Shown: positions 14,065-51,534 of the stretch, piece after piece
Numbering within the stretch: the first letter of the stretch is position 1
Layout: each line of letters begins with the position of its first letter
Assembly (NCBI GenBank): GCA_047495785.1
Contig: JBLDXI010000075.1
Span: 36,175-100,174 of the forward strand
From: Lepidodermella squamata
Lineage: Eukaryota > Animalia > Gastrotricha
Reading direction: 5' to 3'
Length of the DNA: 64,000 bases
Program-made: the position numbers and the translations under genes
Notes under the pieces: model-generated
What the model saw: the letters and a program-made list of their open reading frames with translations, nothing else
Told to the model about the DNA's origin: nothing
Database searches by the model: none

Positions 14065-16554
14065 CGCTGAGTCGAAATTCGAGTGTAGAGCGATATTTGA
14101 AGTTCTATCATGAAATGTGTAACATTCTAGCCCATTCATAAAATAATCATCGAAATCAAAAAAGTAAAATCGAACATAGGCACAGGGAAGATCGCAAAAG
14201 CGGTGTCACGTGTAATAAAGGGAGGATTGGGTCATCCCCCATTCCTAACACAATTTCTACTACGAATCCGGAAATTTTAGAATTTAATTTAATTTAATCA
14301 ATCAATTCTAAGAACTGTACGTTGTTAAACAATCGATTAATTTGAAAAAAAACCAAGATTGGTGATTGTTGGATTTTTGGAATGATGCGAGGACATCATA
14401 ATAATCATGAATTATTCGTTCGCCCAAAAATTCATTCTCAAAATGTTCGGCAGTTTCATAATTAATCCCAACAATTTAAATAAAATTCCTTGAATTTGTT
14501 GGCGAGAAGGCTTCCTCATGACGTCGATAACAAGGCATTAGTTGAATATTATTTGAAAAATTATTCGCAAAATTACGTTATAAATATTTCGCGTGCGATA
14601 TTATGTTAAAATAGTAATGTTTAAGTAGGTCATCTCCAGGAAAATTCTGTTCCGCTAAAAAAATCAGTTAAAATTAAGACAGAGAAATAATTAAATAAAT
14701 TTAAATTAAGTTTAAAATTTATAAATTTCCTTATAAATTTGTCAAAAAATTGTGCACCCCAGCCTAAGAGTGATTAGTTTCCTCAACGGTTTTTAAACTA
14801 ACTAACTACTTGAGTTGGAGAGTGAAAATTATCGCACCTGTTCGAGCGGGATGGGTATGTATTATCGGCTCGCTAAATAGTGTGAAAATCCAGGATCCAC
14901 GCATAGGTATTATATCACTGTCCACATGATGCCGCGCATTTAAATGTGACTCGGCCGCAAGTGGCCGCTGCCGCGCATTGCGCACGTGAGAATGCGGTCG
15001 AATTTCAAAATCACCGCACAAACACAACGGCAAAAGCCATCATCTGCGCGCGCGCGCCAATCAATGCGGTAGTCATCATCGTGCTTAAACTGGAATACAT
15101 ACCGCATTGTTGTTCTATCACAGAGCACTTTTCATCGGCGTAAAATTTTTTACCAATTATTTTGCATTCAGGTATTATTAATTCATATTTGCCCATCAAT
15201 AACAATAACAGAGGGTAAAATTTTAATTCTATTGTTGGCTGCTGGCCATATAATATTAAAACTGGAAGATAAAACTCACAATAAATATTTCGAAAAAACT
15301 TTACAGTAGAAAACAAGCATTATTACAATAGGCGACGATAATAGATCGAAAAATGCGCACGAGTACAGATTTCAAATCCCGTGAGATTGATTTGCAAACC
15401 GTGGATCAAGAATAGCCATAAATAATGCTAAATGATAATCAATAGTAATAATCATATGCATCTGTATTACGAAGAGGAATGTTTTTTGTGTTCAATAAAC
15501 TATAGTAAATTCGAAAAGAACAAAGAACAATTGAGACTGTATTCAGCATCGTAATTAAGAAAAATATCGAAAAATTGAGAAGCAATTCGTCACAATTTTT
15601 TGTTTGCCAAAATAATTGCCTTGAAAATTTGATCAAGGTGGAAAACCTTCACTACAAAGAGTGAAAAAGGAATTTATTTGGTTAATTGTAAATTAAATAA
15701 ATGATTGGAATGTTATTGAGTTATAAAGCAAGTGAACATTTGCGGAAATGCGTTGACAATATAACTATGAGCGCGATTTTGGTGTCGACTTTGTTGACTG
15801 ACGATATGTATAACAATGATGAGGATGACAATAATTGCCATGATTGGCAAGGCATACACGGATCCTGTTCGTATACTTGTATGTATATATCAGAGGCCAA
15901 TTTTCATACATTATCGTCAAGTTTATTTCTGAAAATGACGCGCGCAATTTTAGCGGAATAATTATTTGCGGCGACACCAGGCGCGCGCGCGCGCGCGCAT
16001 TAAGGCGGTAGCAGTAATAAATATAGCAATAAGAATAAATCATGTGAAAAGCGCGCACACTTTGCATTTGATATATTATTATTGTAGATAATTTTATATT
16101 ATGGCACTGATGACAAGTGCGCGCGACTTATCGCCGCGCTCGCCCAGTCACCATGCGAGGCCACTTCATTTCGGCAGCTCCCGCAGCCATGAACGCCCTT
16201 TATATTGTGGTAATCCGCGAGTAATAAAATAGTCTTTATTATTGTAAACATTGGTAATCCCTATTTAAATGATATTTATAAGCGAATAGCAAATTCATGA
16301 TCATAATATTAATATAATTGCGAAAAAATCGATTCTTTCATTCTTTGATCACATGATTATTTCTCGATATCTGTCTGAGATTCTGAGTTCATAGTCCCTT
16401 GGAGCTTGAAGAGTAAAAGATTTTCAAGTGAAATGCTGACATATAGGAAAGCAGGAAACTCGGAATCTGGAACAGCTGCATGATCCTATCCTTGATTTAC
16501 TGCTCAGAGCTGTTCACATTATAACCTCTGAAAATCAGATATATATGCAGCCGA

Positions 16555-30211: not shown

Positions 30212-30670
30212 AGCAGTAGGAATCGGCCGATCCTAAGCCAGCCGCCTCAAAATAAAATTTTCATCTTTTATCATATTCTCCGCAGCAAATCTTCGGCTTT
30301 TCGCATGGGCTCTGCGAAATGCAAAAATCATCACCAACGAGTCAAAATCACCGCCTAGGCATATCCAGCTCAAATTAAATTGAGTTTCGCCAACCATCCG
30401 AATTTTCCGATCTTAAAAATTTGAGAACAGCCTGAAAAGGGGTGCCTTTCAGAACAGCCCCTGAAAATGAAAATTACATCAGATAAGACGTCCTGCTCAC
30501 ACGGATTTCTCCGTTCTGCATTCGCCATTAAAATATATTTTTTCAATAATAAAATTATATGAGAATTATAAAAAACACATTTTTCCGAAAAATTGAAAAA
30601 TATTTGCCGCAGGTTTTTACCCGAATTGTGGTGAATCATCATGCAGGGTTCGAGCTTGTAAGCGTGACTT
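30212..30670 (+). repeat. Left terminal inverted repeat
   Basis: 30212-30533 pairs with 51210-51534, and 30534-30670 pairs with about 49416-49552. Confidence 0.9.
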
Positions 30671-30906
30671 TTCTGAAGCAAAATTAGCTCTGGAAGTATT
30701 CGACAATCCCATGAAATCCTATAAAAGCCCTGATTTTCAGTTTCAGAATCCTGTTCTGAAAAATTCTCAGACAGTGATGCTGGTCAAGGATTTTCACGGC
30801 CTGTGGACATTCGGATAGCCAAGGTATTCCAGAGTTAACTCAGTGAAATATTTGCTAATGATGCTTACATGATGCATACATTCTGATTTTATTCGTACAG
30901 GAAATT

Positions 30907-31509
30907 TTAACGTAACGGGGGAGGATGAAGAAGAGAGACGTGAACATTCATTTCATTCATTTTAAATACATTAGCAGAAGGAAGTTGTGGCAAAATTACA
31001 TCACTTTTCAGACTTATACGAACCCACACATTTTCCTTTTTGTGAGAGAAAATGTTAAAAAACAAGTCAATATTACTGTTTTCACTTCGATCTATTATAA
31101 GATTACGAATAACAGTTTCAAGGTTTTGCAAAACCTGACAAAAGGAAGCAATAGGGGTAACGAGTTCACTTGAAAAAGTTATCTTATTACGATAGCCGAC
31201 TTCTACGCAGTCGTTTACATTCGATAGAATGCTATGGAAATCTCTGAACCACTGAACGAGTCCATCTTCGGCTATACGAGCTTTTTCAATTTTCATAAGC
31301 TCCTTGAGCATGCTTTGATATGAATTTCGCCACTTCTTGATATCAGCAGTCCTGCTAGCGAAGTTGTCAGTAAAGATAATTCCAGTGAACGAATCTTCCA
31401 AATCCACTCTCAAAGAGAGTAAAGCTCGCGTTGTTATCGCATTGGGTTGACGTGCTTCCAGTAACCCCACTAACAAATTCCAAAGCCGGATCAGAATTCT
31501 GCAGCACAT
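30907..31509 (-). CDS. Polinton accessory protein, paralog of 31993-32628
   Basis: LLSLRVDLEDS versus LLRLNVDLEDS; similar length and PPP C-terminus. Confidence 0.65.
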   Translation of the reverse strand: MCCRILIRLWNLLVGLLEARQPNAITTRALLSLRVDLEDSFTGIIFTDNFASRTADIKKWRNSYQSMLKELMKIEKARIAEDGLVQWFRDFHSILSNVNDCVEVGYRNKITFSSELVTPIASFCQVLQNLETVIRNLIIDRSENSNIDLFFNIFSHKKENVWVRISLKSDVILPQLPSANVFKMNEMNVHVSLLHPPPLR

Positions 31510-31675
31510 GAAGAGAAATAACGGTAGACAGCAACAGAACTATTCTAAATAATACAAATCCACACTCATATCATAAATGTTTATATGACGAAGGAGCCTG
31601 TATGATATGAAAGAGAAAGGGGTGCAAGTGTTCATAAGGTGATGTGGGCGTCGACAAGTGACACCATGTTTCATA

Positions 31676-31677
<2 letters not shown>

Positions 31678-31712
<35 letters not shown>
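31678..31712. repeat. (TA)n microsatellite
   Basis: Uninterrupted AT dinucleotide run. Confidence 0.95.
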
Positions 31713-31716
<4 letters not shown>

Positions 31717-31992
31717 TCAGAAGAACTTTCTGTTTCTAAACAAACAAAGTGCTATTAAATAAATTATTATCGTTATTTACAATGATAAGACTTGGTTCGT
31801 AATATGGTTCGTATCAGAATGATTAGCTTCCACGCTGCATTTTACGAGATAAAAAAAAAAAAGAAGGAAACTCAGCTACGAAATGTCCTCAGTTTTAGAT
31901 TGCATGCTCCCTACTTCACACTTCCTTATTACATATATTAGCTACTTGCTCGTTTAGGTTACTTTTAAACCGCTGTTATTATTTACCTTATT

Positions 31993-32628
31993 ATGGAGAC
32001 CACTCCAAGGAACGACGGCGTTACTATCAACATAGATACGAATTTAAACCTTACACCTTACCTTCCACAACTGCTACGTCTGAATGTAGACTTGGAGGAC
32101 TCTGCAATAGCCACATTAACGACTACAGATCCGAAAACCAGAATTGTTCATTTTGAAAAATGGAAGGGGGCTTTAAAAGATATCTTGGAATTACTGTCTA
32201 CTGCTGTCAACAAACAAGAAGCGGCTCAAATCAAGTTCAGCAGATGGATAGCAAGCGTCAAATTTATTCTTCAAGTGGTCAATCTTACACTCGACCGAGC
32301 AATTCAATTGAATCAAACATTCCTCGACAAGGAAATGGGAACTTTCCCCGGACAACTAACACATTTCTTCGGACATTTTGAAAGTTTCATCAAAGATGCT
32401 AAGAAGTGTGAAACTTATTCGTTCTGCGAAGAGACAGGAATATTCATCTGGATGAAGAGAAACATTTTCATGGGTGACCCAACATATGTGCCAAAACTGG
32501 AATGTGTCGTTACAAAGTTTCCTGTTGATAGCCTATTTTCAATAGACGACCTAAAAAAAAGCGTTCAAGAACATGCGGAACGTAGTCTACCACCTCCATA
32601 CACAACCCCACATACAGCTCCTCGTTGA
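31993..32628 (+). CDS. Polinton accessory protein with C-terminal PPPY motif
   Basis: 211-aa ORF, paralog of the 30907 ORF. Confidence 0.7.
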   Translation: METTPRNDGVTINIDTNLNLTPYLPQLLRLNVDLEDSAIATLTTTDPKTRIVHFEKWKGALKDILELLSTAVNKQEAAQIKFSRWIASVKFILQVVNLTLDRAIQLNQTFLDKEMGTFPGQLTHFFGHFESFIKDAKKCETYSFCEETGIFIWMKRNIFMGDPTYVPKLECVVTKFPVDSLFSIDDLKKSVQEHAERSLPPPYTTPHTAPR

Positions 32629-33576
32629 CTCTTCATTTTGATTGTGTTATTGTGTCAATGTGCCATATCATAGCCACGTCTTAATTTTTTGGTTTAAATT
32701 TGAAAATAATTATCATCAATTTAAGTTCAACGCCAGCTTGCAATTATTTTGTGATATTAGCGTTTAGATAAATAATTAAGTCAAGATAAAAGGAAAAGTA
32801 ATAAAAGCATCAGACAGTACTGGGTTGGTGCAAACGAACGTTTTTTCACTTGCAATGAATCATCATAAGTAGAGATAACGGTGCGATTCCGACACCTACG
32901 TGCATGTGGACGCTTGCATTCGCACTCGGTGAAGGTCGGCCGTGATTAATCAATGGCACTCTACCCCGAAGGTAGCCGACCACTCCATCGTGTTAAGAAA
33001 GCGAAAAGTTGCAGATTAGGAGTGTCAGCGAAACTGAACTAATGGCTACCTAGCTACCCCAAAGAGACCCTGCAGGCGACCCCTATGAGCGCTCATTCGG
33101 GGACCTATAACCTCGGCCCATCCATTCAACGAATGAGACGTTTGAAGCATATCAAGGAATTTCCAAATTTTAAATTTGTCACTTATTTCTCGAGGTTAGC
33201 TGTTAAACAAAAAATCAGCTGATAATTCATACGATTCGGACAAATTTAAAAATAAATTCGGCCACAATTTTTAGCCGCAATCAAGGTTAGCCGCAGGTGA
33301 TTTTAATCCGCAAAGTCGGCTGATGATTCGAAACTGTAATCACCGAGTTGGGCTATTCGGTCGATATCTTGCTAAATCTGACTCTGATCTGACAATTTAC
33401 ACTGATAATTCGAACGTTCAAACATTCAAGCTTTCAACCGTTTAAACGTTCAAGCGTTCAACCGTTCAAACGTGTAAATATGCTTGTAAAAGGGCACACG
33501 CCAACGCCTGCGAAGTTCGAACGTTTAAACGTTCAGACTTTCAAACTTTAAAAAATTTTCTGTATATAAGGTAAGT

Positions 33577-33873
33577 ATGTTGAGAACGAAACAAATAAGC
33601 ACAGAAACTAAGGCCAAAATTATTGAAGAATATTTTAAAGGCAAAACCCCTGTATTACAAATTGCGGCCAAATTCAACGTGAGCAAAGGGATGATATATT
33701 ATAATTTACAGAAATGGCTAGGCTCGAATCAAGAATTTAGAGAAAACTCCAGCTATAAGCGTCAGCATGGAGGCAATATTAAGGTGAATTTACTACCCCC
33801 GGAAGAGAATAATCAGTATCCAGTAAAAATTATGTCAATGAATGAAGTTCAGGCGAGAAGAAAGCGAAAATAA
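33577..33873 (+). CDS. Small helix-turn-helix DNA-binding protein
   Basis: ETKAKIIEEY....VLQIAAKFNVSKGMIY HTH signature. Confidence 0.65.
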   Translation: MLRTKQISTETKAKIIEEYFKGKTPVLQIAAKFNVSKGMIYYNLQKWLGSNQEFRENSSYKRQHGGNIKVNLLPPEENNQYPVKIMSMNEVQARRKRK

Positions 33874-33896
33874 ATTTCTCGACAACTTATATAGAC

Positions 33897-34173: not shown

Positions 34174-34262
34174 AATAATCAATATCCACTAAAAATTATG
34201 CTGATGAATGAAGTTCAGGTGAGAAGAAAGCGAAAATAAATTTCTCGACTACTAATATAGAC

Positions 34263-34640: not shown

Positions 34641-34952
34641 ATGCACGATTCCTGTAGTTACATGGAAGAGATGTTAAGGCATACCAAGGAAATTGTTAAA
34701 GCTGCCCACATCAACAATTTGGAAATGAAAAAGATAGTTATGTATACATGTGTAATCTTTTTGGTGATTATTAGTGGCTACGTTGGACTGAAATTACGTA
34801 AGGAGTATTCAGCTAAGAAGCCTACAATAATTAGGGTGAATAAGGTGGCAGACTCTCAGAATTCGATAAAGGCGACGAGTCCAAAGACAAATTTCGGCTA
34901 TCCTGTTCGGCCGTATGAATATTCAAATGAATTATCGACTTTTTACATTTAA
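34641..34952 (+). CDS. Small single-pass membrane protein
   Basis: Hydrophobic IVMYTCVIFLVIISGYVGL followed by basic residues. Confidence 0.55.
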   Translation: MHDSCSYMEEMLRHTKEIVKAAHINNLEMKKIVMYTCVIFLVIISGYVGLKLRKEYSAKKPTIIRVNKVADSQNSIKATSPKTNFGYPVRPYEYSNELSTFYI

Positions 34953-35540: not shown

Positions 35541-36271
35541 TTATATAATAAACTAGAAATTCTTAGATAAAATTTACAAGATATTTTAGACTTGGTTGTC
35601 AATAAAACCTGAAATTTATCACCCATATCAAAGTTTTCAATCATTTCCAGGTGTTCTAAGCGTGTTTCTCCGAGCTGATTATATGTCGAGTATTTGTTCC
35701 CCAAAACTTGTTGCTCATTCTTCACTAGGCTGATTGCGATTGAGTTGCTTTCTCCATTTACGGCTATCCACAGCTGTATGCGGGCAAAAAGGGGTTCCTT
35801 AATTGCCACTGAACCAGGTAAAATCGCATCTCCTTCATCGTCTTGCTCAGAAAAAGCATCACTGCTATCAATTGATATATGAGTAGAATGTAAAGTACTA
35901 AATACTAGGAATTTCTCATTCTCAATGCTATTATGCCCGGACATAAAAAGGGAAATATTGTCTGGATTTGAACCAGATATTTTCGCCATATCCTGTTCAA
36001 CTTTGGCTTTGAACGTATTGAAAGTCGAAAGATGCGATGTTATTTTTTCGTCACAGCCCTTTATAAATTTATCACGTTCTGTCACGAAAGCTTTCAGATT
36101 AACTGCATCGCTATTATGCACAGGGTCACCAACATTCTCTATTCTTTTGTTATTCATATTTACATTTCCGTCAAATGGCACTGATCCATCACTTCGTATA
36201 TATTTATCGTTTCCTTTATTTTTGCTATGTTCATTCCATTCTTTAGGGATAAAAATTACGGAGCTTTTCAT
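35537..36271 (-). CDS. Putative fiber/receptor-binding protein
   Basis: YIRSDG..FDGNVNMNNKRIENVGDP..SDAVN fiber/adhesin neck motif, coiled coil, beta-rich C-terminal head. Confidence 0.6.
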   Translation of the reverse strand: MKSSVIFIPKEWNEHSKNKGNDKYIRSDGSVPFDGNVNMNNKRIENVGDPVHNSDAVNLKAFVTERDKFIKGCDEKITSHLSTFNTFKAKVEQDMAKISGSNPDNISLFMSGHNSIENEKFLVFSTLHSTHISIDSSDAFSEQDDEGDAILPGSVAIKEPLFARIQLWIAVNGESNSIAISLVKNEQQVLGNKYSTYNQLGETRLEHLEMIENFDMGDKFQVLLTTKSKISCKFYLRISSLLYK

Positions 36272-36762
36272 TCTTGGTTAAATACTAGATTTAATTTATC
36301 GTCCCATTTTTTTAAAAGTTTTTCATTTTTTATAATCTTGATTCTTTGGGCTATATGTACAAAGCCTAATTTTTTACACATATATTGTAACACAAATAGT
36401 ACATGTATCATATTTTTCTTTGGAAATTTCTTGAAATATAGTCTATCTAATTCTTTGTATAAATTCATGATTTTGTCTTGCTCATGGCCATTAATGTGCA
36501 AGTCGTGCTTTCTGATAACAGACATGATATGCCAAGACCTTTTGTAAGGCGGCGAAAACCGGTTACTACCTTCGGGATTACAATAAGGATAGCAACGGCC
36601 GCAAGACGTACATATATTGAAATTTTCATGATAATCAGGAAATAGATCAATGTTGCAAACTTCGCAAGTCATATATTTGTGTGCAAGGTTTTCATATGAC
36701 CCACTTCTATCGATTTTGTAATGCAAATCGAAAAGCTCTTCATCAGTCATTTTTCTTTCCAT
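36268..36762 (-). CDS. VLTF3-like late transcription factor (Zn ribbon)
   Basis: CEVC...ICTSCG, YKRSWH, RKN-like KKNM..FVL..LG, W near the C-terminus. Confidence 0.7.
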   Translation of the reverse strand: MERKMTDEELFDLHYKIDRSGSYENLAHKYMTCEVCNIDLFPDYHENFNICTSCGRCYPYCNPEGSNRFSPPYKRSWHIMSVIRKHDLHINGHEQDKIMNLYKELDRLYFKKFPKKNMIHVLFVLQYMCKKLGFVHIAQRIKIIKNEKLLKKWDDKLNLVFNQE

Positions 36763-36793
36763 TAGCAACTTACCTAATAACAGTAACAAAGCT

Positions 36794-36925
36794 TCAAGTA
36801 ATAAACTTACACTTTTTAGACTTGCATAAAATACAAATACATTTTAAGACTTTTTTCATATTTTTTGTATATGCAATTTGCTCATTAGCATTCCCAGTAA
36901 CGATTTTACATTTCATACAAAACAT
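36794..36925 (-). CDS. 43-aa Zn-binding microprotein (DUF5679-like), absent from the ORF track
   Basis: MFCMKCKIVTGNANEQIAYTKNMKKVLKCICILCKSKKCKFIT; TCTAG 13 nt upstream. Confidence 0.75.
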   Translation of the reverse strand: MFCMKCKIVTGNANEQIAYTKNMKKVLKCICILCKSKKCKFIT

Positions 36926-36938
36926 TCCTATATTCTAA

Positions 36939-37394
36939 CTAGAAGTTATCATTAAACCATTTCATCAATTTCAAATCGTTCGAGATATTGTTATTGTTCT
37001 CGAAATCCAACAGTATCTCAAGTTTATCTCGGCCTCTGTACAATTCACACAAAAAATAGATGCAGTAAAAACCACAGGCCACCGATTTTATATTTTGAAT
37101 CTCATGGGTGCTGTAATATATATCCCTCGCAACTTTTCTAAGTATTATTTCATTTGGGCATATAAATCCAAAGCTATCAAAATAAACTATATTGCTATCA
37201 GTCACTTGCATACATACCCAATGCGTTCCAGTTCGATTATCTAAATTTATGACATAATAACCGTTATTCAAAACCGTTGGTAAGCCATCTCGCGGAAAGC
37301 ATCCGCTATAACCTCTTCCCAATTTCATAGATAAAATATTATCAATTTGCCCATTTGAAAGAGGGAAGAATTTTTTCAGTTTTTTGACTCCCAT
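36939..37394 (-). CDS. Adenain-like cysteine maturation protease
   Basis: INLD..GTHWV, YFDSFG, Q...S..CGFYC; catalytic His/Asp/Gln/Cys present. Confidence 0.92.
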   Translation of the reverse strand: MGVKKLKKFFPLSNGQIDNILSMKLGRGYSGCFPRDGLPTVLNNGYYVINLDNRTGTHWVCMQVTDSNIVYFDSFGFICPNEIILRKVARDIYYSTHEIQNIKSVACGFYCIYFLCELYRGRDKLEILLDFENNNNISNDLKLMKWFNDNF

Positions 37395-37993
37395 GGTAAA
37401 TATATTCCATTCCCTTTCTGGAATAATGTAGGTAAAAACGTACCTAATAAACTAGCAATCAAGGGTAAAACAAATGCACCACCACTCTGTTCAATATCTT
37501 TCTCAGATGCCGATTTAGATCCGCCGGGTAGTATATTTTTATTTTCCAAAACATCTATGTATTTGATAATCTCAACCAAATCCCTTCTAGGAATATTGAG
37601 ATTCATATTTTCAGTTACGCCATTCCCTACAAGTTTATTGCCTATTGCATTAGCAGCTGAATTGACTAAACCAGATACTGCAGAAATGGCTAATGGGGCA
37701 GCAATTGATCCAACCTTCGCTAATATCGGCAGTAAAGGAATCATTCCGCCTGTTTGGTTCTTTTTTAACTGTGAAAGGCTAAATTGTATTTCCACCCCCG
37801 TGTTCATAGTTCTATGTTTCTCTATTTTATTGATTTGGGATTTTGTAAGGAACACTTTTCTCAAGTTAGTTTTTGAATGAATATCTTTCTTACTTATTAG
37901 CAATGTTATGCATTTCCTATTATTTATCCCTGATTGTAATTTTTGCATTTGCCCATCGGACAGAGGAATTTCATATTCAAAATATTTACTCAT
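37376..37993 (-). CDS. Polinton virion core protein (uncharacterised)
   Basis: LTKSQI.KI...FS.SQL..GG motif plus amphipathic segments following GG/GxG sites. Confidence 0.7.
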   Translation of the reverse strand: MSKYFEYEIPLSDGQMQKLQSGINNRKCITLLISKKDIHSKTNLRKVFLTKSQINKIEKHRTMNTGVEIQFSLSQLKKNQTGGMIPLLPILAKVGSIAAPLAISAVSGLVNSAANAIGNKLVGNGVTENMNLNIPRRDLVEIIKYIDVLENKNILPGGSKSASEKDIEQSGGAFVLPLIASLLGTFLPTLFQKGNGIYLPWESKN

Positions 37994-38018
37994 TTTATTG
38001 GAAGACTAGATTTTCTTT

Positions 38019-39398
38019 TCATAGACTTTGCAGAGAAATATCCAAAGTTCCATGCTTATAATTAAATGCGATTTCTTTTTCACGTTCAATAAAGCTATAA
38101 ATTACTAACGGCTTATTAACTGCTCCAACAGTAGCTTTAAAAACGATTGAACAAGTATTATCAGCACGTGAATTATATATTGAACTTGCATCAATATCAT
38201 TTAGATTGAAACATAGGATTCTATACAAATTGCAGAAATCAAGATATGAAATTTGTGATCCTATATTTAAACTTTCTCTGTCACCAGATTGAGACATATT
38301 CTGTTTTATATATTGATATAGTTTATGAGCTTTCAATGAATTGAAACTAACATTTGATTCATTAAAAGCTTCCTTATTATTAATCAACAAAGAATATGAA
38401 GTAATGTTCCATAGGTTGTATATCTGGTTTAATTTTTTAGGTATTTCAGTATCAGTATAATCAGGAATTAATACTAAATAAATGTAAATTGGTTTCTTAA
38501 TTTCTGTTGACACTGTCCATTGAATATTCTGAATATTATTTGCAAATTGCTGTGATTGGAATGGTTCGATCGACATCCATTTGTGAACTTTTGAAAATCC
38601 TGAATTGAATTTTTCTAAAACTTCCAACTTATTTTTATTCATGAGCGTAACTTCTGGAATCATCAGATTTGCTTTCGATATTTTATATGTCATGCCAGCA
38701 GTTTCACCCGTGGCTGCATCTGCAATGACATATATTAGGCTTTTACTATAATTCGGGGTTAATATAATTCTGAATCTTGATTTGGTGAAAATACCATTGA
38801 ATGAATTGAAAAATGGAAGATCTTTCAAGAACAGAGTACATATCATTTGGTTACTTTTTACAAATGAACTCCTTACAATAAGACCATTATTCGCAGTAGC
38901 TTTGGATCCGTCAAATGAATCAGCTGTTACATCTTCGCTAAGTGTTCTTGTTGCTCTTGGCAATGGACAATCCCTAGAGAATAAAGATTCTTCCCCATAT
39001 GTCTCGGCATATTCTTTGCTCCATTTTAACAAGAAATTGATATTTGCCCAATGTTCGGTGAATCTCAATTCTTCAATTTTATGATCGCTATCGGATATCT
39101 GAATTTCAACAGATTCGAATAAACTCAACACATGATTACGAATAGCATATTTATCAGTAGCAGCAAAATCCTTAGCATTATTTCTGACAAAGTGAAGTTG
39201 AAATTCAATGTAACCTTCTCGAACTAATAGGAAATTGTCTTTCAAGTTTATTGTTGAAAAAATTAATTTGTTTGGTTGGCTCTGACTATCCTGAATGAAA
39301 TTCTGCGCGGGAGTTTCAGTCCATACCTTCTTCTCAAATAATCTGTCATCAATTTCGGTGGTTTCAAAAAGATTGTTAATAATTTCTTGTTGTAACAT
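38019..39398 (-). CDS. Major capsid protein (double jelly-roll)
   Basis: 459 aa, beta-rich, SLF..VEI.I and KP.YIY patterns; position within the morphogenesis module. Confidence 0.8.
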   Translation of the reverse strand: MLQQEIINNLFETTEIDDRLFEKKVWTETPAQNFIQDSQSQPNKLIFSTINLKDNFLLVREGYIEFQLHFVRNNAKDFAATDKYAIRNHVLSLFESVEIQISDSDHKIEELRFTEHWANINFLLKWSKEYAETYGEESLFSRDCPLPRATRTLSEDVTADSFDGSKATANNGLIVRSSFVKSNQMICTLFLKDLPFFNSFNGIFTKSRFRIILTPNYSKSLIYVIADAATGETAGMTYKISKANLMIPEVTLMNKNKLEVLEKFNSGFSKVHKWMSIEPFQSQQFANNIQNIQWTVSTEIKKPIYIYLVLIPDYTDTEIPKKLNQIYNLWNITSYSLLINNKEAFNESNVSFNSLKAHKLYQYIKQNMSQSGDRESLNIGSQISYLDFCNLYRILCFNLNDIDASSIYNSRADNTCSIVFKATVGAVNKPLVIYSFIEREKEIAFNYKHGTLDISLQSL

Positions 39399-39411
39399 TT
39401 TATCAATATAA

Positions 39412-39711
39412 CTAGATTTTTTTGAACCCTTTCCCGGTTATCCTATCTGCTATTTCACCCTTTATTCTATTCTCCAACTCTTCAATAGCTTTTATATTGC
39501 GTCGGGGATTAGGTATTACGTTTTCAGTTATTTTTGCTGCTACGTAATTTCCTAACTTATCACCGACTACTTCACTACCAGATTTTAGAGCTGATTTTAG
39601 CAATGACTCCGCAGGATCTCTACCCATGCTAATCAATTTTCCTAATAATTGCTTACTAACTTCCATGAATCCTCTACCTCGAATATAAATTTTTTTAGAG
39701 TTCTGTTTCAT
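39412..39711 (-). CDS. Small basic core protein
   Basis: GRGF and GKGF motifs; upstream TCTAG. Confidence 0.65.
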   Translation of the reverse strand: MKQNSKKIYIRGRGFMEVSKQLLGKLISMGRDPAESLLKSALKSGSEVVGDKLGNYVAAKITENVIPNPRRNIKAIEELENRIKGEIADRITGKGFKKI

Positions 39712-39763
39712 TTTATTATAAAACTAGAAATTCTACAATCTGTCGTCTTTATCATCCAATACG

Positions 39764-40015
39764 CGCTCATAAGCGTGAACAATCATGATTCATCCTAATC
39801 GAGCTTGTAGGCGCGAATTTTCATGATTCATCATATTCGAGCTTGTAGGCGCGAATTTTCATGATTCATCATATTCGAGCTTGTAGGCGCGAATTTTCAT
39901 GATTCATCCTAATCGAGCTTGTAAGCGTGAACATTCATGATTCATCCTAATCGAGCTTGTAAGCGCGAATTTTCATGATTCATCCTAATCGAGCTTGTAA
40001 GCGCGAATTTTCATG
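39764..40015. repeat. 38-bp tandem array 1 (6 units plus partials)
   Basis: Units start at 39785, 39823, 39861, 39899, 39937, 39975. Confidence 0.95.
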
Positions 40016-40017
40016 GG

Positions 40018-40758
40018 TCATATAATATCTAATCCAATGCCCCATTTGTTTTCAACAAAGTGAATAGGCAATCCGTCTTGATTAGTCAGCCAGATTTTAA
40101 TATTTTGCGTATTAGCGTTATTACAATCTAAATACCGTTTTTCATTCGGTGTTATATTTACATGCTCGCCGAATCTCCTATTCATGGGACATGTAAAAAT
40201 CACTGTGTTATATTCAGGGATTATAGAATTATCAACAACATTGCAATGAACAAATAAAGTATCGAACCCGATTGTGATGTCAGGTATTTTCTGAGAATTG
40301 AAATCACTGTCATAATTTCCAATTTCGATACCTAAAAATTTTGAAATCCCGTCAGATTCTATTAAAAGGCCAAATTTCTCTGATATCCTAATGCTGAGAC
40401 AAGAAAATACACTATTTACCACGAGATTTATTGGATAAATTTCAACCCCTGATTCCTTATCCAGAGAATAGTGATTATTATTTTTCATGGAGAAGTGTAA
40501 ATAATTATCAAAATCTTTGTAAGTATAGGTTCCATCAGGAAATGTAACCTCAAATGTTTCACCTTCTGTTATGTATTTTAATTTGTTGTTATTATATTTC
40601 CCAGAAACATTATGAAATGTGTCATAAAAATGAATATAGGAAACAGCTATTTTCCGTCCTGAAAAGTTGATCTTTTGATTAAGATAGCGATCTATAGTAT
40701 TATTTAATGTTGACTTGTTATTCTGATTATTTTCCAATGGCAAAAATATCATACTCAT
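40018..40758 (-). CDS. Minor capsid protein (penton)
   Basis: HNVS..YNNN, FPDGTY, LFVHCNVVDNS, GE..I.P, I.IWLTNQDG motifs. Confidence 0.82.
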   Translation of the reverse strand: MSMIFLPLENNQNNKSTLNNTIDRYLNQKINFSGRKIAVSYIHFYDTFHNVSGKYNNNKLKYITEGETFEVTFPDGTYTYKDFDNYLHFSMKNNNHYSLDKESGVEIYPINLVVNSVFSCLSIRISEKFGLLIESDGISKFLGIEIGNYDSDFNSQKIPDITIGFDTLFVHCNVVDNSIIPEYNTVIFTCPMNRRFGEHVNITPNEKRYLDCNNANTQNIKIWLTNQDGLPIHFVENKWGIGLDII

Positions 40759-40812
40759 TTATTATTAAGTTAGATATTGGCGAATTTACAAATATTGCAA
40801 ACGTGCCAACGT

Positions 40813-41925
40813 TCACACGCCGGCGAACGTGCAAACATGCTTGTATTCTGCATCTGAGATATTTTTATGTTTCAGAAGTAAATCAGCTATGGATACTAAT
40901 TCATTTTTAATTTCTTTATTGTTGTTGCCAGCTTTTATTTCGCCAATGCAATGTAATAGCCTTGTTTTTGCATCCTTGACATTCAGAAATAGTGATTCTC
41001 CTTTTAAAACCCTATTTACCTTAGAATGTTTTTTAGGTTCGAAATTGGTCCTTCTTATTATTTCTTTATACATATCAATATCTTCATTTGTATAGCTGTA
41101 CTTCTTTGGATCGTAATTTTTGAATAACAAATGTTTTACTCCATTGGTTATATTCATATTAAAAACTATCGCATTATTTTTCTTCCTAATGCATAATTTG
41201 TTACTAGCAAGATCTTTAATCTTAGCATAATATTTCCCAAATTTTATTAAATTTTTTGGAATTGGTTTAGCAAATCCGCTGCCGCTCTGTTCCCCAGTTA
41301 GTTTCTCTAAGGCTGACCTGTATTTTTTAAGTTCTCCAATTTCGAATTTTATTTGATTGTATTCCTCTGATTCTTTTTTACCACCACGTGTCAAAGTAGC
41401 TAAACGTGATCCTAAAACCCTCTTATTATATTCAGATATATCATGTATGACATCTTCAATATTATCAGCTTCAATGTCATCAACCAGGGGGAAATTATGT
41501 TTCTTGATTACATTCTCATTAATGCTTTTCATATCGATCTCAGGCTCTCGAGCACTTTGATATTCTTCATATGTGTTTTCATCTCTATCAGTTGACTCAC
41601 TTTTTGATAATGGGCTTGAAGGTTCCAATTTAGGTTGCTTTAATTCAGATTTAACTTCTTGGGCTATTTCTTTGGCTATCACCTCAGGTTTCATTCTTGT
41701 TAAATTATTATTCAATTTTTCTATAGAATTGACAACAGGTCGTTGTTTGATCGCATTTTGAATGGACGCTAGAGGATTCAATTCGGTGTCTACGTTATAT
41801 TTATGCTTCAAAGTGTATGTATCTCCATTGGCAAGGGCGATATTTTGATTGTGCAGATTTTCCTGTTTTTCCAAATTTTTTAAAATTTGAATTTGTTCGG
41901 GTATTGTTAGTTCTTTGATCGTCAT
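40813..41925 (-). CDS. Conserved Polinton hypothetical protein
   Basis: Coiled-coil N-half, GSG site, C-terminal GEIKAGNNN..IKNE motif. Confidence 0.7.
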   Translation of the reverse strand: MTIKELTIPEQIQILKNLEKQENLHNQNIALANGDTYTLKHKYNVDTELNPLASIQNAIKQRPVVNSIEKLNNNLTRMKPEVIAKEIAQEVKSELKQPKLEPSSPLSKSESTDRDENTYEEYQSAREPEIDMKSINENVIKKHNFPLVDDIEADNIEDVIHDISEYNKRVLGSRLATLTRGGKKESEEYNQIKFEIGELKKYRSALEKLTGEQSGSGFAKPIPKNLIKFGKYYAKIKDLASNKLCIRKKNNAIVFNMNITNGVKHLLFKNYDPKKYSYTNEDIDMYKEIIRRTNFEPKKHSKVNRVLKGESLFLNVKDAKTRLLHCIGEIKAGNNNKEIKNELVSIADLLLKHKNISDAEYKHVCTFAGV

Positions 41926-41954
41926 GAAAGTGTTTTTAATCAATGACTAGATAA

Positions 41955-42656
41955 TTACGAATGAAATATACCTATGTAATTTGCTCTCAGTTTCAGCAAC
42001 TTATGCCTGGAATTACAATCAATAATGAAACTACCATGGCGATTGTAAGTGCTGATGCTTTCTTCGTATTTTTTCATAAAGTCTTCTCTTACCATTTCGG
42101 ATGCATATATGTTATGAATAGTTTTAACCTCTCTAAAATCATTCAAATGTTTCAATACAACGAATAAAGCGTTGTCCCTGATTATTTTCGGTACTTTGAA
42201 ATACGATTGAGATAAATACACGACCGAGCAGTTGTATTTTCTACTTCTTATATACAAATCGCCAATATATTTTTCTTGGCTTTTCTTTTCGGTTAAACAT
42301 ACATCATCAAAAATGTATAGATGTTGATAACGCTTATCCAGATCTTCCATTGGTATCGCATCTTTTAAGTCTGTACTAAAATGAATGAGGCTTTCAGAGA
42401 TACCTGATTTCTTCAATTCCTCTTCTTTCCGTCGTTGAACGTTGATTAGAAATTGATACTTATCCTCATCAAGTGTTTTGGAATAAACGTATATTTTATG
42501 AAAAACTGAGTTATGTATGATGTTCAGCAAATCATTAGTTTTACCTGAATTACTAGGCCCGATAATTAATATTCTAGCAGGATGCTGGGGGAAAAATGGA
42601 TTTGGATTTATATAATTATTACTGCCTTGGGAAACTATATCATCAAAATTAATCAT
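41955..42656 (-). CDS. A32/FtsK-like genome packaging ATPase
   Basis: Walker A GPSNSGKT, Walker B YIFDD, SRK, LSQ, IRDN; start placed at MINFDD using the promoter motif. Confidence 0.93.
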   Translation of the reverse strand: MINFDDIVSQGSNNYINPNPFFPQHPARILIIGPSNSGKTNDLLNIIHNSVFHKIYVYSKTLDEDKYQFLINVQRRKEEELKKSGISESLIHFSTDLKDAIPMEDLDKRYQHLYIFDDVCLTEKKSQEKYIGDLYIRSRKYNCSVVYLSQSYFKVPKIIRDNALFVVLKHLNDFREVKTIHNIYASEMVREDFMKKYEESISTYNRHGSFIIDCNSRHKLLKLRANYIGIFHS

Positions 42657-42685
42657 TCTTATAAATATATTAGAAAATTTGCAGC

Positions 42686-43011
42686 CGAGCTTGTAAGCGC
42701 GACTTTTCATGATTCATCATATTCGAGCTTGTAGGCGTGAATTTCCATGATTCATCATATTCGAGCTTGTAGGCGTGAATTTCCATGATTCATCATATTC
42801 GAGCTTGTAGGCGTGAATTTCCATGATTCATCATATTCGAGCTTGTAGGCGTGAATTTCCATGATTCATCATATTCGAGCTTGTAGGCGTGAATTTCCAT
42901 GATTCATCATATTCGAGCTTGTAGGCGTGAATTTCCATGATTCATCATATTCGAGCTTGTAGGCGTGAATTTCCATGATTCATCATATTCGAGCTTGTAG
43001 GCGTGAATTTC
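42686..43011. repeat. 38-bp tandem array 2 (8 essentially identical units plus a partial)
   Basis: atgattcatcatattcgagcttgtaggcgtgaatttcc starting at 42709 + 38n. Confidence 0.97.
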
Positions 43012-43039
43012 GAAACCAACTTCTAGCCATACTTCAGAT

Positions 43040-44506: not shown

Positions 44507-44626
44507 AGAGTGATGCATTTATGAATTACTCCCTACTGAGTCAAAATGGGAAAAGGGTGGATATATAAGAATGAGTTCAAACTGGCTTTAATGCGTTAAG
44601 TAATATTTATATTTCTCATCTATATA

Positions 44627-44878
44627 TTAAGTCAAGAAAATATTTTTCAATTTATTTGCGATGATGTTACTGACAAGTTCCTCCAATTGTTTTTCCGAAA
44701 TAACCAGCAGCTTATCCGTCGTATTAAGAATCGTATCATTCAATTGCGCCATGTGGAACGTTTCACGCCAGTACTTCTTACAGCTGTTTTTATGAACCTC
44801 TTTATATGCTAATAATTTTTCTTCTTCTGTCAGGTATTTTCTAGGTCTACCTCTGGGTTGCTTATTAATAGTTGTCAT
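44627..44878 (-). CDS. Small AT-hook protein
   Basis: PRGRPRKY motif; shares an upstream element with polB. Confidence 0.65.
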   Translation of the reverse strand: MTTINKQPRGRPRKYLTEEEKLLAYKEVHKNSCKKYWRETFHMAQLNDTILNTTDKLLVISEKQLEELVSNIIANKLKNIFLT

Positions 44879-45004
44879 AGTGAATTTCTATATATATTAT
44901 ATCAAGAAAATAATTCTTTAAGCATTTCCAAAAAGAATATGGAAAAAGAAAAAAATTGAAATTTCTATATAAGGAATTATTTTCTTAATATAATATATAT
45001 AAGA

Positions 45005-49240: not shown

Positions 49241-49837
49241 TAATTCACGCTTACAGGCGCGAGTCTGATGAGTCATCCGATTTTAAATTGTAATAAGTGA
49301 AAATACACGCTTACAAACGCGAGTGTGATGATTCATTATAATTTTAAATAGCAATAAATCGAAATAATGAACAAGCTATATAAATAACCCTGTGAACATA
49401 TTGACTTTTAATGAAACACGCTTGCAAGCGCGAACCCAGCATGATGAGTCATCAAAATTCGAGGAAAAACCTGCGGCAAATATTTGTTAATTTTTTTGAA
49501 AAAAATGTGTTTTTTATAATTCTCACATAACTTTATTTTTGAAAAAATATATAATTTGATTTTTTTCTGTGACCTTGAAAATTATCATGTACACGTGGCG
49601 GTTTTAGCACGTTTCCGGCATTTGCATCGATTTCACTCGTTCTTTGCGCTGTTCTTTTACCATCATTCGCGTCCATCGATTTCAGTAATTTATTCAATAG
49701 TTAGTCGATCTTCGCCTTTTAATTGGCCTTTTCATTTTCAATGACTGCCTTATTCAGAGTTGCGAAGTCTTGCGAAGTCTTAATTCCTGTTTACTCATCT
49801 TAAAACCCTGTCGATAATATTCCATTTATATTTTTAG

Positions 49838-50870
49838 ATGTCGAACGAAAAAGTTGTGAAAGCACATGAATATCATTAGATTAAGGGATTGATTGAGGAG
49901 AGAAATCGAAAGGCTGAGCTATGGCTAGCTTTTGCCAAAGCTGTAAGTGAGAGTTTGGATGAACGGTGAGTTTTGGCTGCTTTCAACTTTTTTCTTTATT
50001 TTTTGTTTTTCATCCTTTAGCCAGGCGAACTGCGAAAAGCTTATGGAGAAGTATCCTCAGGAGGAGCCGATAAAAGAACTGATTGCTAAAACCAACCAGC
50101 AATGTGAAGTATTATCGGGCATGATCGCGAATCTCCCTGATCTCCATGAAGAGATTCCAGAATCACCGCCTCACAGACTCAAACATCAGAAGAAACGAAA
50201 GCTTGAAGAAGATCCAATCAATGAAATTGATCCCAATACGCTGATGATGGTAAGTTCATATTTCTACAATTGAAGTTTATGCTCTAGATTTTCTTCATGA
50301 TAGGGACCTGATGGCTATCAGCATCCTATTGCAACCGATCAACAACTCTTGGAATTCTTGAAATTTTGTAAACATATACCGAATAATCAGGAATTATCTA
50401 AAGTAAATGTAAAATCCTTATCCCTCGATAAACTCATAGATCATTCTAAAAAAAAGGCGATAGATCTGAAAAACACGGTATCACTGAAACTAGCTAAAAC
50501 TTTCGATCTCGGCGAATGTATAGAATTGATTAGAGAGAAATATTTAGAGAATAACGGATCTGAGAGAGGCTTTATACCTTATGTTAGTAATGCTATAAAA
50601 CATTGCGAGCAGTGGATTCGTAAAATTGTGAACTTCTATCAGGATTTCAATTATTATCCAAACATTGTATATCTCCAATTATCTATAACTAATATGATGA
50701 AATTAGCCCCTAGACTGAAAAATCTGTTGGCTAACAACCTAGATTTTATTGCTTTTTATGATGAGCTGTGTGGTATTGATGATCAAGTCTTTGCAAACGA
50801 AACCGCTTCTACTTCAACCGCATCAACTGTTTCCGCTGCTGTGAATGATGAATCTGTAATGGATACGTGA
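49838..50870 (+). pseudogene. Intron-containing accessory gene inside the right TIR, with an early in-frame TAG
   Basis: ATG at 49838; GTAAGT donors near 49943 and 50250; helical C-terminal domain; TAG at codon 14. Confidence 0.5.
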
Positions 50871-51209
50871 TTAACGGCTTGAATATGTTAATTAATTCTT
50901 TTCAGTCATAAAAAAACTTAAAAATCGTAATTCTTAGACCAAATACTATTTCTGTTATTTCTTCTTATTTCTTCTTATTTCTTCTGAATCAGCTATCCCA
51001 TTTATTTAGTTTGAAATTTATTGACTTAAATGAACAATTTATTTGTTTATTTAAATCAGTCTCTCTTCTTTAAATTCCGAAATCCAATGTGTCGTGTGCT
51101 TTCACATCTTTTTCGTTCGACATCTCATAGTATTGTTTTGAATTGAGAGAGTGAGAGAATAAAATGAGAAGAATCTTGTTTTCAGTCTTACTTTTTATTG
51201 AAGCCCGAT

Positions 51210-51534
51210 TTTTAATAGCGAATGCTGAACGGAGAAATTTGCGTGAGCAGCAGGATATCTTATCCGGTGTAAATATCATTTCTAGACGGTGTTCTGAAAA
51301 CCACCCCTTTTCAGGCTATTCTCAAAATTTTAAGATCGGAAAATTCAGACGACCGGTGAAACTCAATTTAATTTTAGCTGGATATGCCTAGACCGCGATT
51401 TTGACTCGTTGGTGATGATTTTTGCATTTCGCAGAGCCCATGCGAAATGCCGAAAATTTGCCGCGGGGAATATGATAAAAGATGAAAATTTTATTTTGAG
51501 GCGGCTGGCCCAGCATCGGCCGATTCCTACTGCT
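51210..51534 (-). repeat. Right terminal inverted repeat (outer part)
   Basis: Reverse complement of 30212-30533 with scattered mismatches. Confidence 0.92.

Follow-up and report, generated by a model that had tools for sequence, protein, structure and literature searches.

The element and its genes

The window analysed here, a 64,000-nucleotide stretch of contig JBLDXI010000075.1 from the gastrotrich Lepidodermella squamata, contains a Polinton/Maverick element bounded by inverted repeats. Nearly all genes of this element are preceded by a TCT-based signal that comes in two flavours, hereafter referred to as class A (TCTAG or TCTAA) and class B (TTTCT...ATATA). The element, its signals and its genes are listed in Table 1.

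Sequence features identify the element as a Polinton/Maverick (adintovirus) with intact core genes residing in an animal genome. The genes by which Mavericks/Polintons are recognised, those for family B DNA polymerase (polB), rve integrase (here in a PLA2-like/rve/chromodomain fusion), A32-like packaging ATPase, major capsid protein (MCP), penton and a weakly matching adenain protease, are all present as open frames. Terminal inverted repeats (TIRs) of Mavericks/Polintons are expected to end in AG...CT, and those of the element do; the two arms are 89% identical, with the right arm interrupted. A 6-bp target-site duplication is likewise expected of such elements. None was found, the sequences flanking both TIRs being different; the locus may be old or recombined. 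The GC content of the element core is 33.6% vs 42–43% in the flanks. The sequence-only reading of this DNA had assigned the element to an animal host, and this is borne out by an open reading frame (ORF) in the flank that is similar to the NMDA-receptor subunit GluN2 (9694–10314, E 2e-25).

The MCP groups with Polinton-type proteins of PF21738, and its profile retrieves PF21738 proteins in distant loci. A virophage-type MCP was not found by this grouping, in which no virophage MCP model was scored directly, and by its capsid type the element is no virophage. Its polB, in the 36–42% identical/similar range relative to polB of other contigs, had no PF03175 match in our Pfam scan, as is also the case for polB of ‘Beta’ class adintoviruses according to portions of PMC8502044. 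The element resembles the VLTF3-bearing subgroup of animal adintoviruses, as described in parts of PMC8502044 and PMC11131425, in gene set, TIRs, PLA2-like domain, SLATT gene and VLTF3-like gene.

TCT-based signals upstream of the genes

Ten TCTA sites had been listed in the sequence-only reading. All ten coordinates were confirmed. Seven ATGs have TCTAG at a distance of 12–13 nt; TCTAA lies 11 nt ahead of the penton gene and 13 nt ahead of the ATPase gene. The ATPase site is valid because most close homologues (232–236 amino acids, aa) start with the same initial methionine, which corresponds to the second ATG of the frame (42656). Genes with class A signals include those of MCP, penton, ATPase and the fibre-like protein. 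A gene absent from the ORF list, which the earlier reading had predicted from the motif, is indeed present and encodes a microprotein with a weak DUF5679 match. The protease and VLTF3-like genes each lie directly behind a TCTAG-bearing gene.

In a single 3-nt spacing window, TCTA precedes 9 of 20 genes and TCTAG 7 of 20. When the best k-mer at any spacing was recorded, the maximum in 300 sets of random ATGs was 7 for 4-mers and 5 for 5-mers, and in 300 shuffles 5 and 4; no random-ATG or shuffled set reached the observed TCTA and TCTAG counts. Only eight of the 694 ATGs of the element core have TCTAG 11–13 nt upstream. Genes begin at seven of these; the remaining one (41769) falls within a gene and in another frame.

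Two of the eight TCTAG sites double as the stop codon of an upstream gene and two further class A sites lie in coding ends, as would be expected if the signal were an artefact that arises from stop codons and the close packing of genes. Packing fails to explain the sites, however, because six of the ten are intergenic. In addition, the spacing is fixed, random and shuffled controls stay below the observed counts, and the codons involved in overlaps are minority codons (CTA, 46/406 Leu; ATC, 66/403 Ile). The artefact is largely refuted by the intergenic sites and we find it hardly credible.

Initiators of RNA polymerase II (Pol II) follow the consensus YYANWYY. Most class A sites fit this consensus in part, and the fixed spacing of 12–13 nt would suit a minimal leader, so TCTAGT might be a host initiator that provides the shortest scannable leader and requires no viral factor. 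A TCTAGA core promoter is known in an animal, Oikopleura (passages of PMC6389100). In Oikopleura, however, the motif has A as its last base and precedes the start site by a median of 44 bp; of the eight TCTAG sites here, seven have T at the sixth position. A host initiator would also leave the class B signals, the match to a giant-virus motif described below and the retention of VLTF3 unexplained, which makes it improbable as the sole reader of the code.

The same Oikopleura motif overlaps trans-splice acceptors (PMC6389100, same passages), and eight of the ten class A sites end in YAG in what looks like an operon. The AG of TCTAG might accordingly be a spliced-leader site at which a polycistronic transcript of the eleven-gene block is cut. 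Yet two sites are TCTAA, and the 15 nt before the sites contain 20–67% pyrimidines, less than 50% in five of eight cases. The fifth base in distant contigs is A or T in most cases, and one of these contigs (L027) lacks the G at four of its five sites. Ahead of the MCP homologue P0003 a leader is translated that would accommodate TCTAA with unchanged spacing, although a TCTA-free reading is also possible. We regard trans-splicing as very unlikely.

TCTA was said to be missing before polB and before the helix-turn-helix (HTH) and coiled-coil genes. At the class A spacing this holds; polB and the coiled-coil genes nevertheless carry the TCT...ATATA signal of class B, and the HTH gene a weaker match to it. 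These sites were compared with the 25-position late consensus of mimivirus/megavirus, taken from part of PMC11464507. The consensus has four perfect matches in 64 kb, three of them in the element, while 0.03 are expected from whole-window shuffles, a control that ignores local AT richness. Local shuffles gave P 0.002 for the polB site and 0/1000 for that of the coiled-coil gene. The perfect match before polB defeats the proposed logic by which late genes have the motif and early genes lack it.

The two classes are related. Class A sites have the TCT core in common with class B and often an ATAAA-like second half, with 3–6 mismatches to the mimivirus consensus. TCT ending 13–17 nt before the ATG was found in 11 of 16 independent genes vs a maximum of 8 in 2000 shuffles (window chosen post hoc), and the two-part pattern precedes 10 of 18 genes vs 9 of 677 other ATGs (pattern chosen post hoc). 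We conclude that this animal Polinton carries a real two-class positional signal built from known parts.

Some further sites were noted. The sequence near the class B match at 44621–44645 resembles the polB start, which suggests a decayed duplicate. The fourth perfect match (16072–16096, minus strand) belongs to the host flank; an ATG follows after 4 nt and no ORF of 150 aa is present there, and the match is probably due to chance. The baculovirus-type motif DTAAG precedes 4 of 18 genes vs 35 of 677 other ATGs, these sites being few and noticed after the fact. Downstream, AATAAA lies within 60 nt of the stop codon in 5 of 18 genes against a background of 12.5%.

Table 1. Coordinates in the window of the element, its upstream signals and its genes
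Feature	Position	Strand	Remarks
Polinton/Maverick element	30215–51531		bounded by inverted repeats
Left TIR	30215–30666		starts AGTAG
Right TIR	49417–51531		two pieces, 49417–49552 and 51210–51531, ~1.7 kb between; ends CTACT
Class A, TCTAG	35553–35557	-	12 nt before ATG, within end of upstream ORF
Class A, TCTAG	36285–36289	-	13 nt before ATG, within VLTF3-like ORF
Class A, TCTAG	36939–36943	-	13 nt before ATG; TAG is protease stop codon
Class A, TCTAG	38006–38010	-	12 nt before ATG, intergenic
Class A, TCTAG	39412–39416	-	13 nt before ATG; TAG is upstream stop codon
Class A, TCTAG	39724–39728	-	12 nt before ATG, intergenic
Class A, TCTAA (penton)	40770–40774	-	11 nt before ATG
Class A, TCTAG	41947–41951	-	21 nt before ATG
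Class A, TCTAA (ATPase)	42670–42674	-	13 nt before ATG
Class A, TCTAG	43022–43026	+	13 nt before ATG
Class B, weak, 3 mismatches	33551–33575	+	before HTH gene; local shuffle P 0.012
Class B, 1 mismatch	33869–33893	+	ends 3 nt before ATG
Class B, 1 mismatch	34235–34259	+	duplicate of 33869 site
Class B, 0 mismatches	44621–44645	-	only a 7-codon ORF behind
Class B, 0 mismatches	44891–44915	-	12 nt before ATG of AT-hook gene; inverted repeat of polB signal
Class B, 0 mismatches	44975–44999	+	5 nt before polB ATG
HTH protein, 98 aa	33577–33873	+	Pfam HTH_28 E 5e-4, below cut-off
Short copy of coiled-coil-like gene, 69 aa	33897–34106	+	366-bp duplication
Coiled-coil-like protein, 121 aa	34263–34628	+	label from the sequence-only reading; no Pfam match
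103-aa protein	34641–34952	+	hydrophobic stretch; TATATAG upstream, without TCTA
SLATT-like protein, 202 aa	34932–35540	-	two transmembrane segments; Pfam SLATT_5 E 6e-5, below cut-off
244-aa protein, tail-fibre-like segment	35537–36271	-	PHROGs tail fibre E 1e-5, 33 residues
VLTF3-like factor, 164 aa	36268–36762	-	zinc ribbon and one predicted cyclin-like repeat (TFIIB-like)
DUF5679-like zinc-finger microprotein, 43 aa	36794–36925	-	DUF5679 E 0.0012, under curated cut-off
Adenain-like cysteine protease, 151 aa	36939–37394	-	Pfam Peptidase_C5 E 0.014 (weak); start overlaps upstream ORF; without motif
Likely core protein, 205 aa	37376–37993	-	glycine motifs; no family match
MCP, 459 aa	38019–39398	-	PF21738 double jelly-roll-like in 2/15 homologues
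Likely virion protein, 99 aa	39412–39711	-	adenain-type glycine motifs
Penton (minor capsid protein), 246 aa	40018–40758	-	model pLDDT 81; top fold match mavirus penton, E 6e-8
370-aa protein	40813–41925	-	also in other Polinton-type contigs
A32-like packaging ATPase, 233 aa	41955–42656	-	Pfam Pox_A32 E 4e-8
PLA2-like + rve integrase + chromodomain fusion, 488 aa	43040–44506	+	Pfam; rve PF00665 E 6e-14
83-aa protein, GRP motif	44627–44878	-	presumably AT-hook-like
polB, 1411 aa	45005–49240	+	catalytic motifs present

The VLTF3-like factor and distant contigs

The product of 36268–36762 had been called VLTF3-like, and family Pfam matches, Atlas clusters and fold matches all agree with the call. 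A word-index search revealed no homologue of this protein, and an exhaustive search nine, the uncut ones being similar in length to its 164 aa. Pox_VLTF3 was matched by five of ten aligned family members (best E 8e-9) and the A2L zinc ribbon by one; the combination of zinc ribbon and Pox_VLTF3 domain is thus present at the level of the family, while the window protein alone stays under the Pfam cut-off. VLTF3 clusters account for 26 of 30 Atlas matches. The predicted structure (pLDDT 77.5) has VLTF3 and TFIIB as top viral fold matches. In the PDB, the 13 best matches come from Pol II/III initiation complexes, and we take the matching chains to be TFIIB/Brf; these matches are weak (E 0.04–0.5). 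The model predicts a TFIIB-like fold composed of a zinc ribbon and a cyclin repeat.

DNA of close relatives was not found when the MCP was used to scan contigs from viruses, metagenomes and genomes, nor in a single-protein polB scan, an ATPase scan of genome contigs or a scan with the PLA2-like ORF of L027. Alignments of ATPase and polB led to 163 distant loci, which are partial, and the VLTF3 profile applied to them is narrow. In three sets of ORFs, TCTA ended 10–16 nt before the ATG in 47/304, 49/343 and 105/645 cases, exceeding more distant positions 4- to 6-fold; in the polB set the corresponding count was only 2/45. The mimivirus consensus with TCT core was found at 36/304, 20/343 and 109/645 ORFs vs shuffle maxima of 5, 3 and 11. 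In 24 Polinton-type loci TCTA was weaker (10/149 ORFs). The positional enrichment expected in relatives was seen in distant polinton-like contigs, whereas the motif is rare in other Polinton-type ones.

Several loci (L084, L020, L065, L008 and many of L106–L163) have TCTA, or ATCT, TCTT or TCTC, 10–16 nt before many starts, in L084 before up to 10 of 15 ORFs. The 1954-bp L027 has TCTA 14–20 nt before all five of its ORFs, which was reached in 0 of 20000 shuffles. The L027 ATPase shares 64% identity with P0040, a member of the clade that sits beside that of the window. The ATPase tree is a quick version in which long branches meet and from which loci with fewer than five ORFs, L027 included, were left out, and gives rough placement only. 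From protease, penton and ATPase matches and the description in part of 10.64898/2026.06.19.733378, we infer that many of the distant contigs are ‘Gossevirus-like’. The distribution of TCTA extends far beyond the CroV/mavirus lineage.

The VLTF3 profile is clear in L059, L061 and L078 only, and weaker in L053, L058, L017, L031 and L115. The near-identical L059 and L061, which have both polB and VLTF3, carry TCTA before the ATPase gene and, in L061, before the MCP gene, and not before polB or VLTF3. Three Polinton-type loci, L025, L029 and L017, are mostly without TCTA; many of their genes start immediately behind ATAA or TATAA, which looks like the second half of the signal without the first. 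In the window the PLA2-like domain is in frame with the integrase; the ORF at L027:1–456 (minus strand) likewise runs from a PLA2-like into an integrase-like part, and TCTAG lies upstream of both.

Other features of the element deserve mention. The glycine motifs of the 205-aa and 99-aa proteins resemble adenain cleavage sites. Just inside the left TIR, two divergent genes (30907–31509, minus strand; 31993–32628, plus strand) encode distant paralogues (22% identity, E 4e-8); neither matched Pfam, and Atlas returned nothing convincing for the second. A contig of run X1 joins 30423 to 33435 and skips this pair, which is possibly cargo of this element copy. Of the sequencing runs listed, none is registered as RNA. 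In run X2, guessed to be RNA, there are contigs on both left-end genes that end in poly(A), and contigs of low depth cover ~36.0–45.3 kb, with none over 33.3–36.0 or 45.3–48.6 kb; these contigs rank no genes and locate no starts, and no inference was drawn from them. The ~1.7 kb separating the two pieces of the right TIR (49550–51210) contains a 104-aa ORF (49959–50273) and a further open frame; the latter may represent exons. Two arrays of a 38-bp unit (39783–40015 and 42686–43011; 6.1 and 8.6 copies) could be enhancers or origins, and we liken them to the homologous regions of baculoviruses. Each TIR also has the core of this unit at its inner edge (30650, 49419).

How the signals may be read

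The likeness to the TCTA motif of CroV and mavirus, noted in the sequence-only reading, is supported. Passages of PMC8547959, PMC13196603 and PMC5294985 describe a TCTA late motif in CroV, ChlorV, mavirus and type 4 EMALEs. In common with these systems, the element is small, integrates, encodes a capsid together with polB, rve integrase, protease and ATPase, and has AT-flanked TCTA just before start codons; its penton fold is closest to that of mavirus. Unlike CroV, mavirus and EMALEs, it has an animal host, a Polinton-type MCP, a fifth base that is nearly always G, a second signal class, a VLTF3-like gene of its own and no known helper. Class B sites, at 0–1 mismatches, agree with the mimivirus/megavirus late motif that is used by Sputnik and Zamilon (parts of PMC11464507, PMC11998528), and class A sites have its TCT core and, in part, its second half; unlike the mimivirus motif, the best matches in the element precede replication and DNA-binding genes.

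We tentatively favour the view that the element inherited a two-class viral promoter code that is read by its VLTF3-like factor together with host Pol II. The compact promoter would consist of TCT followed about 9 bases on by ATA(T/A)A, with the TCTA(G) box as one of two classes. Class B would act first, on polB, the AT-hook gene, the coiled-coil genes and perhaps the HTH gene, and class A would then drive the virion genes. Transcription would start within ~15 nt of the ATG, and the protease and VLTF3-like genes would be second cistrons of class A transcripts. The VLTF3-like factor would replace TFIIB; the element would therefore need no giant virus as a source of the factor, while relatives without VLTF3 would borrow such a factor from a giant virus. 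Of the dedicated late regulon proposed earlier, a promoter-like positional signal on virion and assembly genes stands; a simple early/late split does not, given the mimivirus late match of polB.

Precedents exist for retaining such a gene. According to parts of PMC11253617 and 10.64898/2026.08.29.747986, mriyaviruses and ‘Ariadnavirales’, which are nucleocytoviricots that depend on the nucleus, keep VLTF3 in the absence of an RNA polymerase of their own; unlike the element, they also keep VLTF2 (ariadnaviruses TFIIB too) and are not Polintons. By analogy with these polymerase-less nucleocytoviricots, the retained TFIIB-like gene would fit an own factor working with host Pol II.

A number of observations weigh against this reading. 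The factor is a short form covering positions 69–157 of the 168-position Pfam model, and a VLTF2-like partner was not found in a Pfam scan of the element proteins. The factor would be needed for class A transcription to start, and yet its own gene probably follows a class A signal, an awkward arrangement. Class B comprises few independent sites, because the polB and AT-hook signals belong to a single inverted repeat and those of the two coiled-coil genes to a single duplication. Eight other contigs share the ATPase clade of the window, whose support is weak, and have TCTA at the spacing in only 4 of 67 ORFs; the VLTF3-positive fragments L053 and L058 lack it before ATPase. The motif does not require an element-borne VLTF3, because it is common in distant contigs that have no convincing match to the VLTF3 profile, and no such match was found in the motif-richest contigs. 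No report that VLTF3 reads TCTA was found in the passages of the literature examined.

The main rival is a helper giant virus. In that case the element would be a provirophage in an animal: a co-infecting large DNA virus would supply the RNA polymerase and late factors that read both classes, as happens with mavirus and Sputnik, and the element's own VLTF3-like protein would only redirect that machinery. A TATA-like half within ~12 nt of the ATG is too close for a Pol II TATA box, in keeping with such a polymerase. Promoters matching a giant-virus late motif, as expected of a provirophage, are present: class A equals the late motif of CroV, mavirus and ChlorV (passages of PMC8547959 and PMC13196603), and class B, polB included, fits the mimivirus late consensus, virophage genes being mainly under late motifs (PMC11464507, in part). 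The mimivirus consensus is enriched in distant contigs also. Polinton-like viruses were found in entomopoxvirus occlusion bodies (portions of PMC11296320), and Spodoptera adintoviruses were co-purified from baculovirus-infected cells (portions of PMC8502044). Against a helper, no helper sequence was seen in the window, the host genome not having been searched. The early AAAATTGA motif is close to no start on either strand, except for one copy ~50 nt before polB, and no consistent 3' hairpins were found in the element genes. The element also has its own polymerase, integrase and late-type factor. The TCTA signal itself names no helper, because it is too widespread among polinton-like viruses. 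A provirophage is possible in our opinion, though rather unlikely.

The entomopoxvirus-associated polinton-like viruses (PMC11296320, as above) are likewise Polinton relatives that occur in animals and were proposed to depend on a large DNA virus; the evidence there is co-occurrence in occlusion bodies, unlike the promoter-like signal alone that is available here. The adintovirus and coral studies differ from ours in that the word ‘promoter’ is absent from their main texts (PMC8502044, PMC11131425), and it is also absent from the main texts of the entomopoxvirus paper (PMC11296320) and of a 2026 framework for polinton-like viruses (10.64898/2026.06.19.733378), as far as these sources were available. 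A literature search, with subscription journals mostly uncovered and supplements excluded, found no promoter-motif study of animal Mavericks. To judge from this search, the two-class code in an animal Maverick is previously undescribed. Its components are each published, namely the motif itself, the presence of VLTF3 in Polintons (reported for a subgroup of coral polintoviruses in part of PMC11131425) and the proposal of virophage-like elements in insects (part of PMC11296320).

On a wider and more speculative view, which we consider rather unlikely, giant viruses, virophages, protist polinton-like viruses and one clade of animal Mavericks share an ancient TCT...ATATA grammar. Mavericks that captured a miniature TFIIB-like VLTF3 would with it re-aim host Pol II at this grammar and would have become helper-independent, yet a giant virus of animals, as yet unknown, could still activate them.

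What is at stake is the activation of capsid genes by Mavericks residing in animal genomes, and their status as independent viruses or as satellites. A two-class code of few bases with one candidate factor makes this a small problem, testable with reporters and start-site mapping. The code also provides a sequence tag for screening the thousands of animal Mavericks and for finding matching large DNA viruses of animals.

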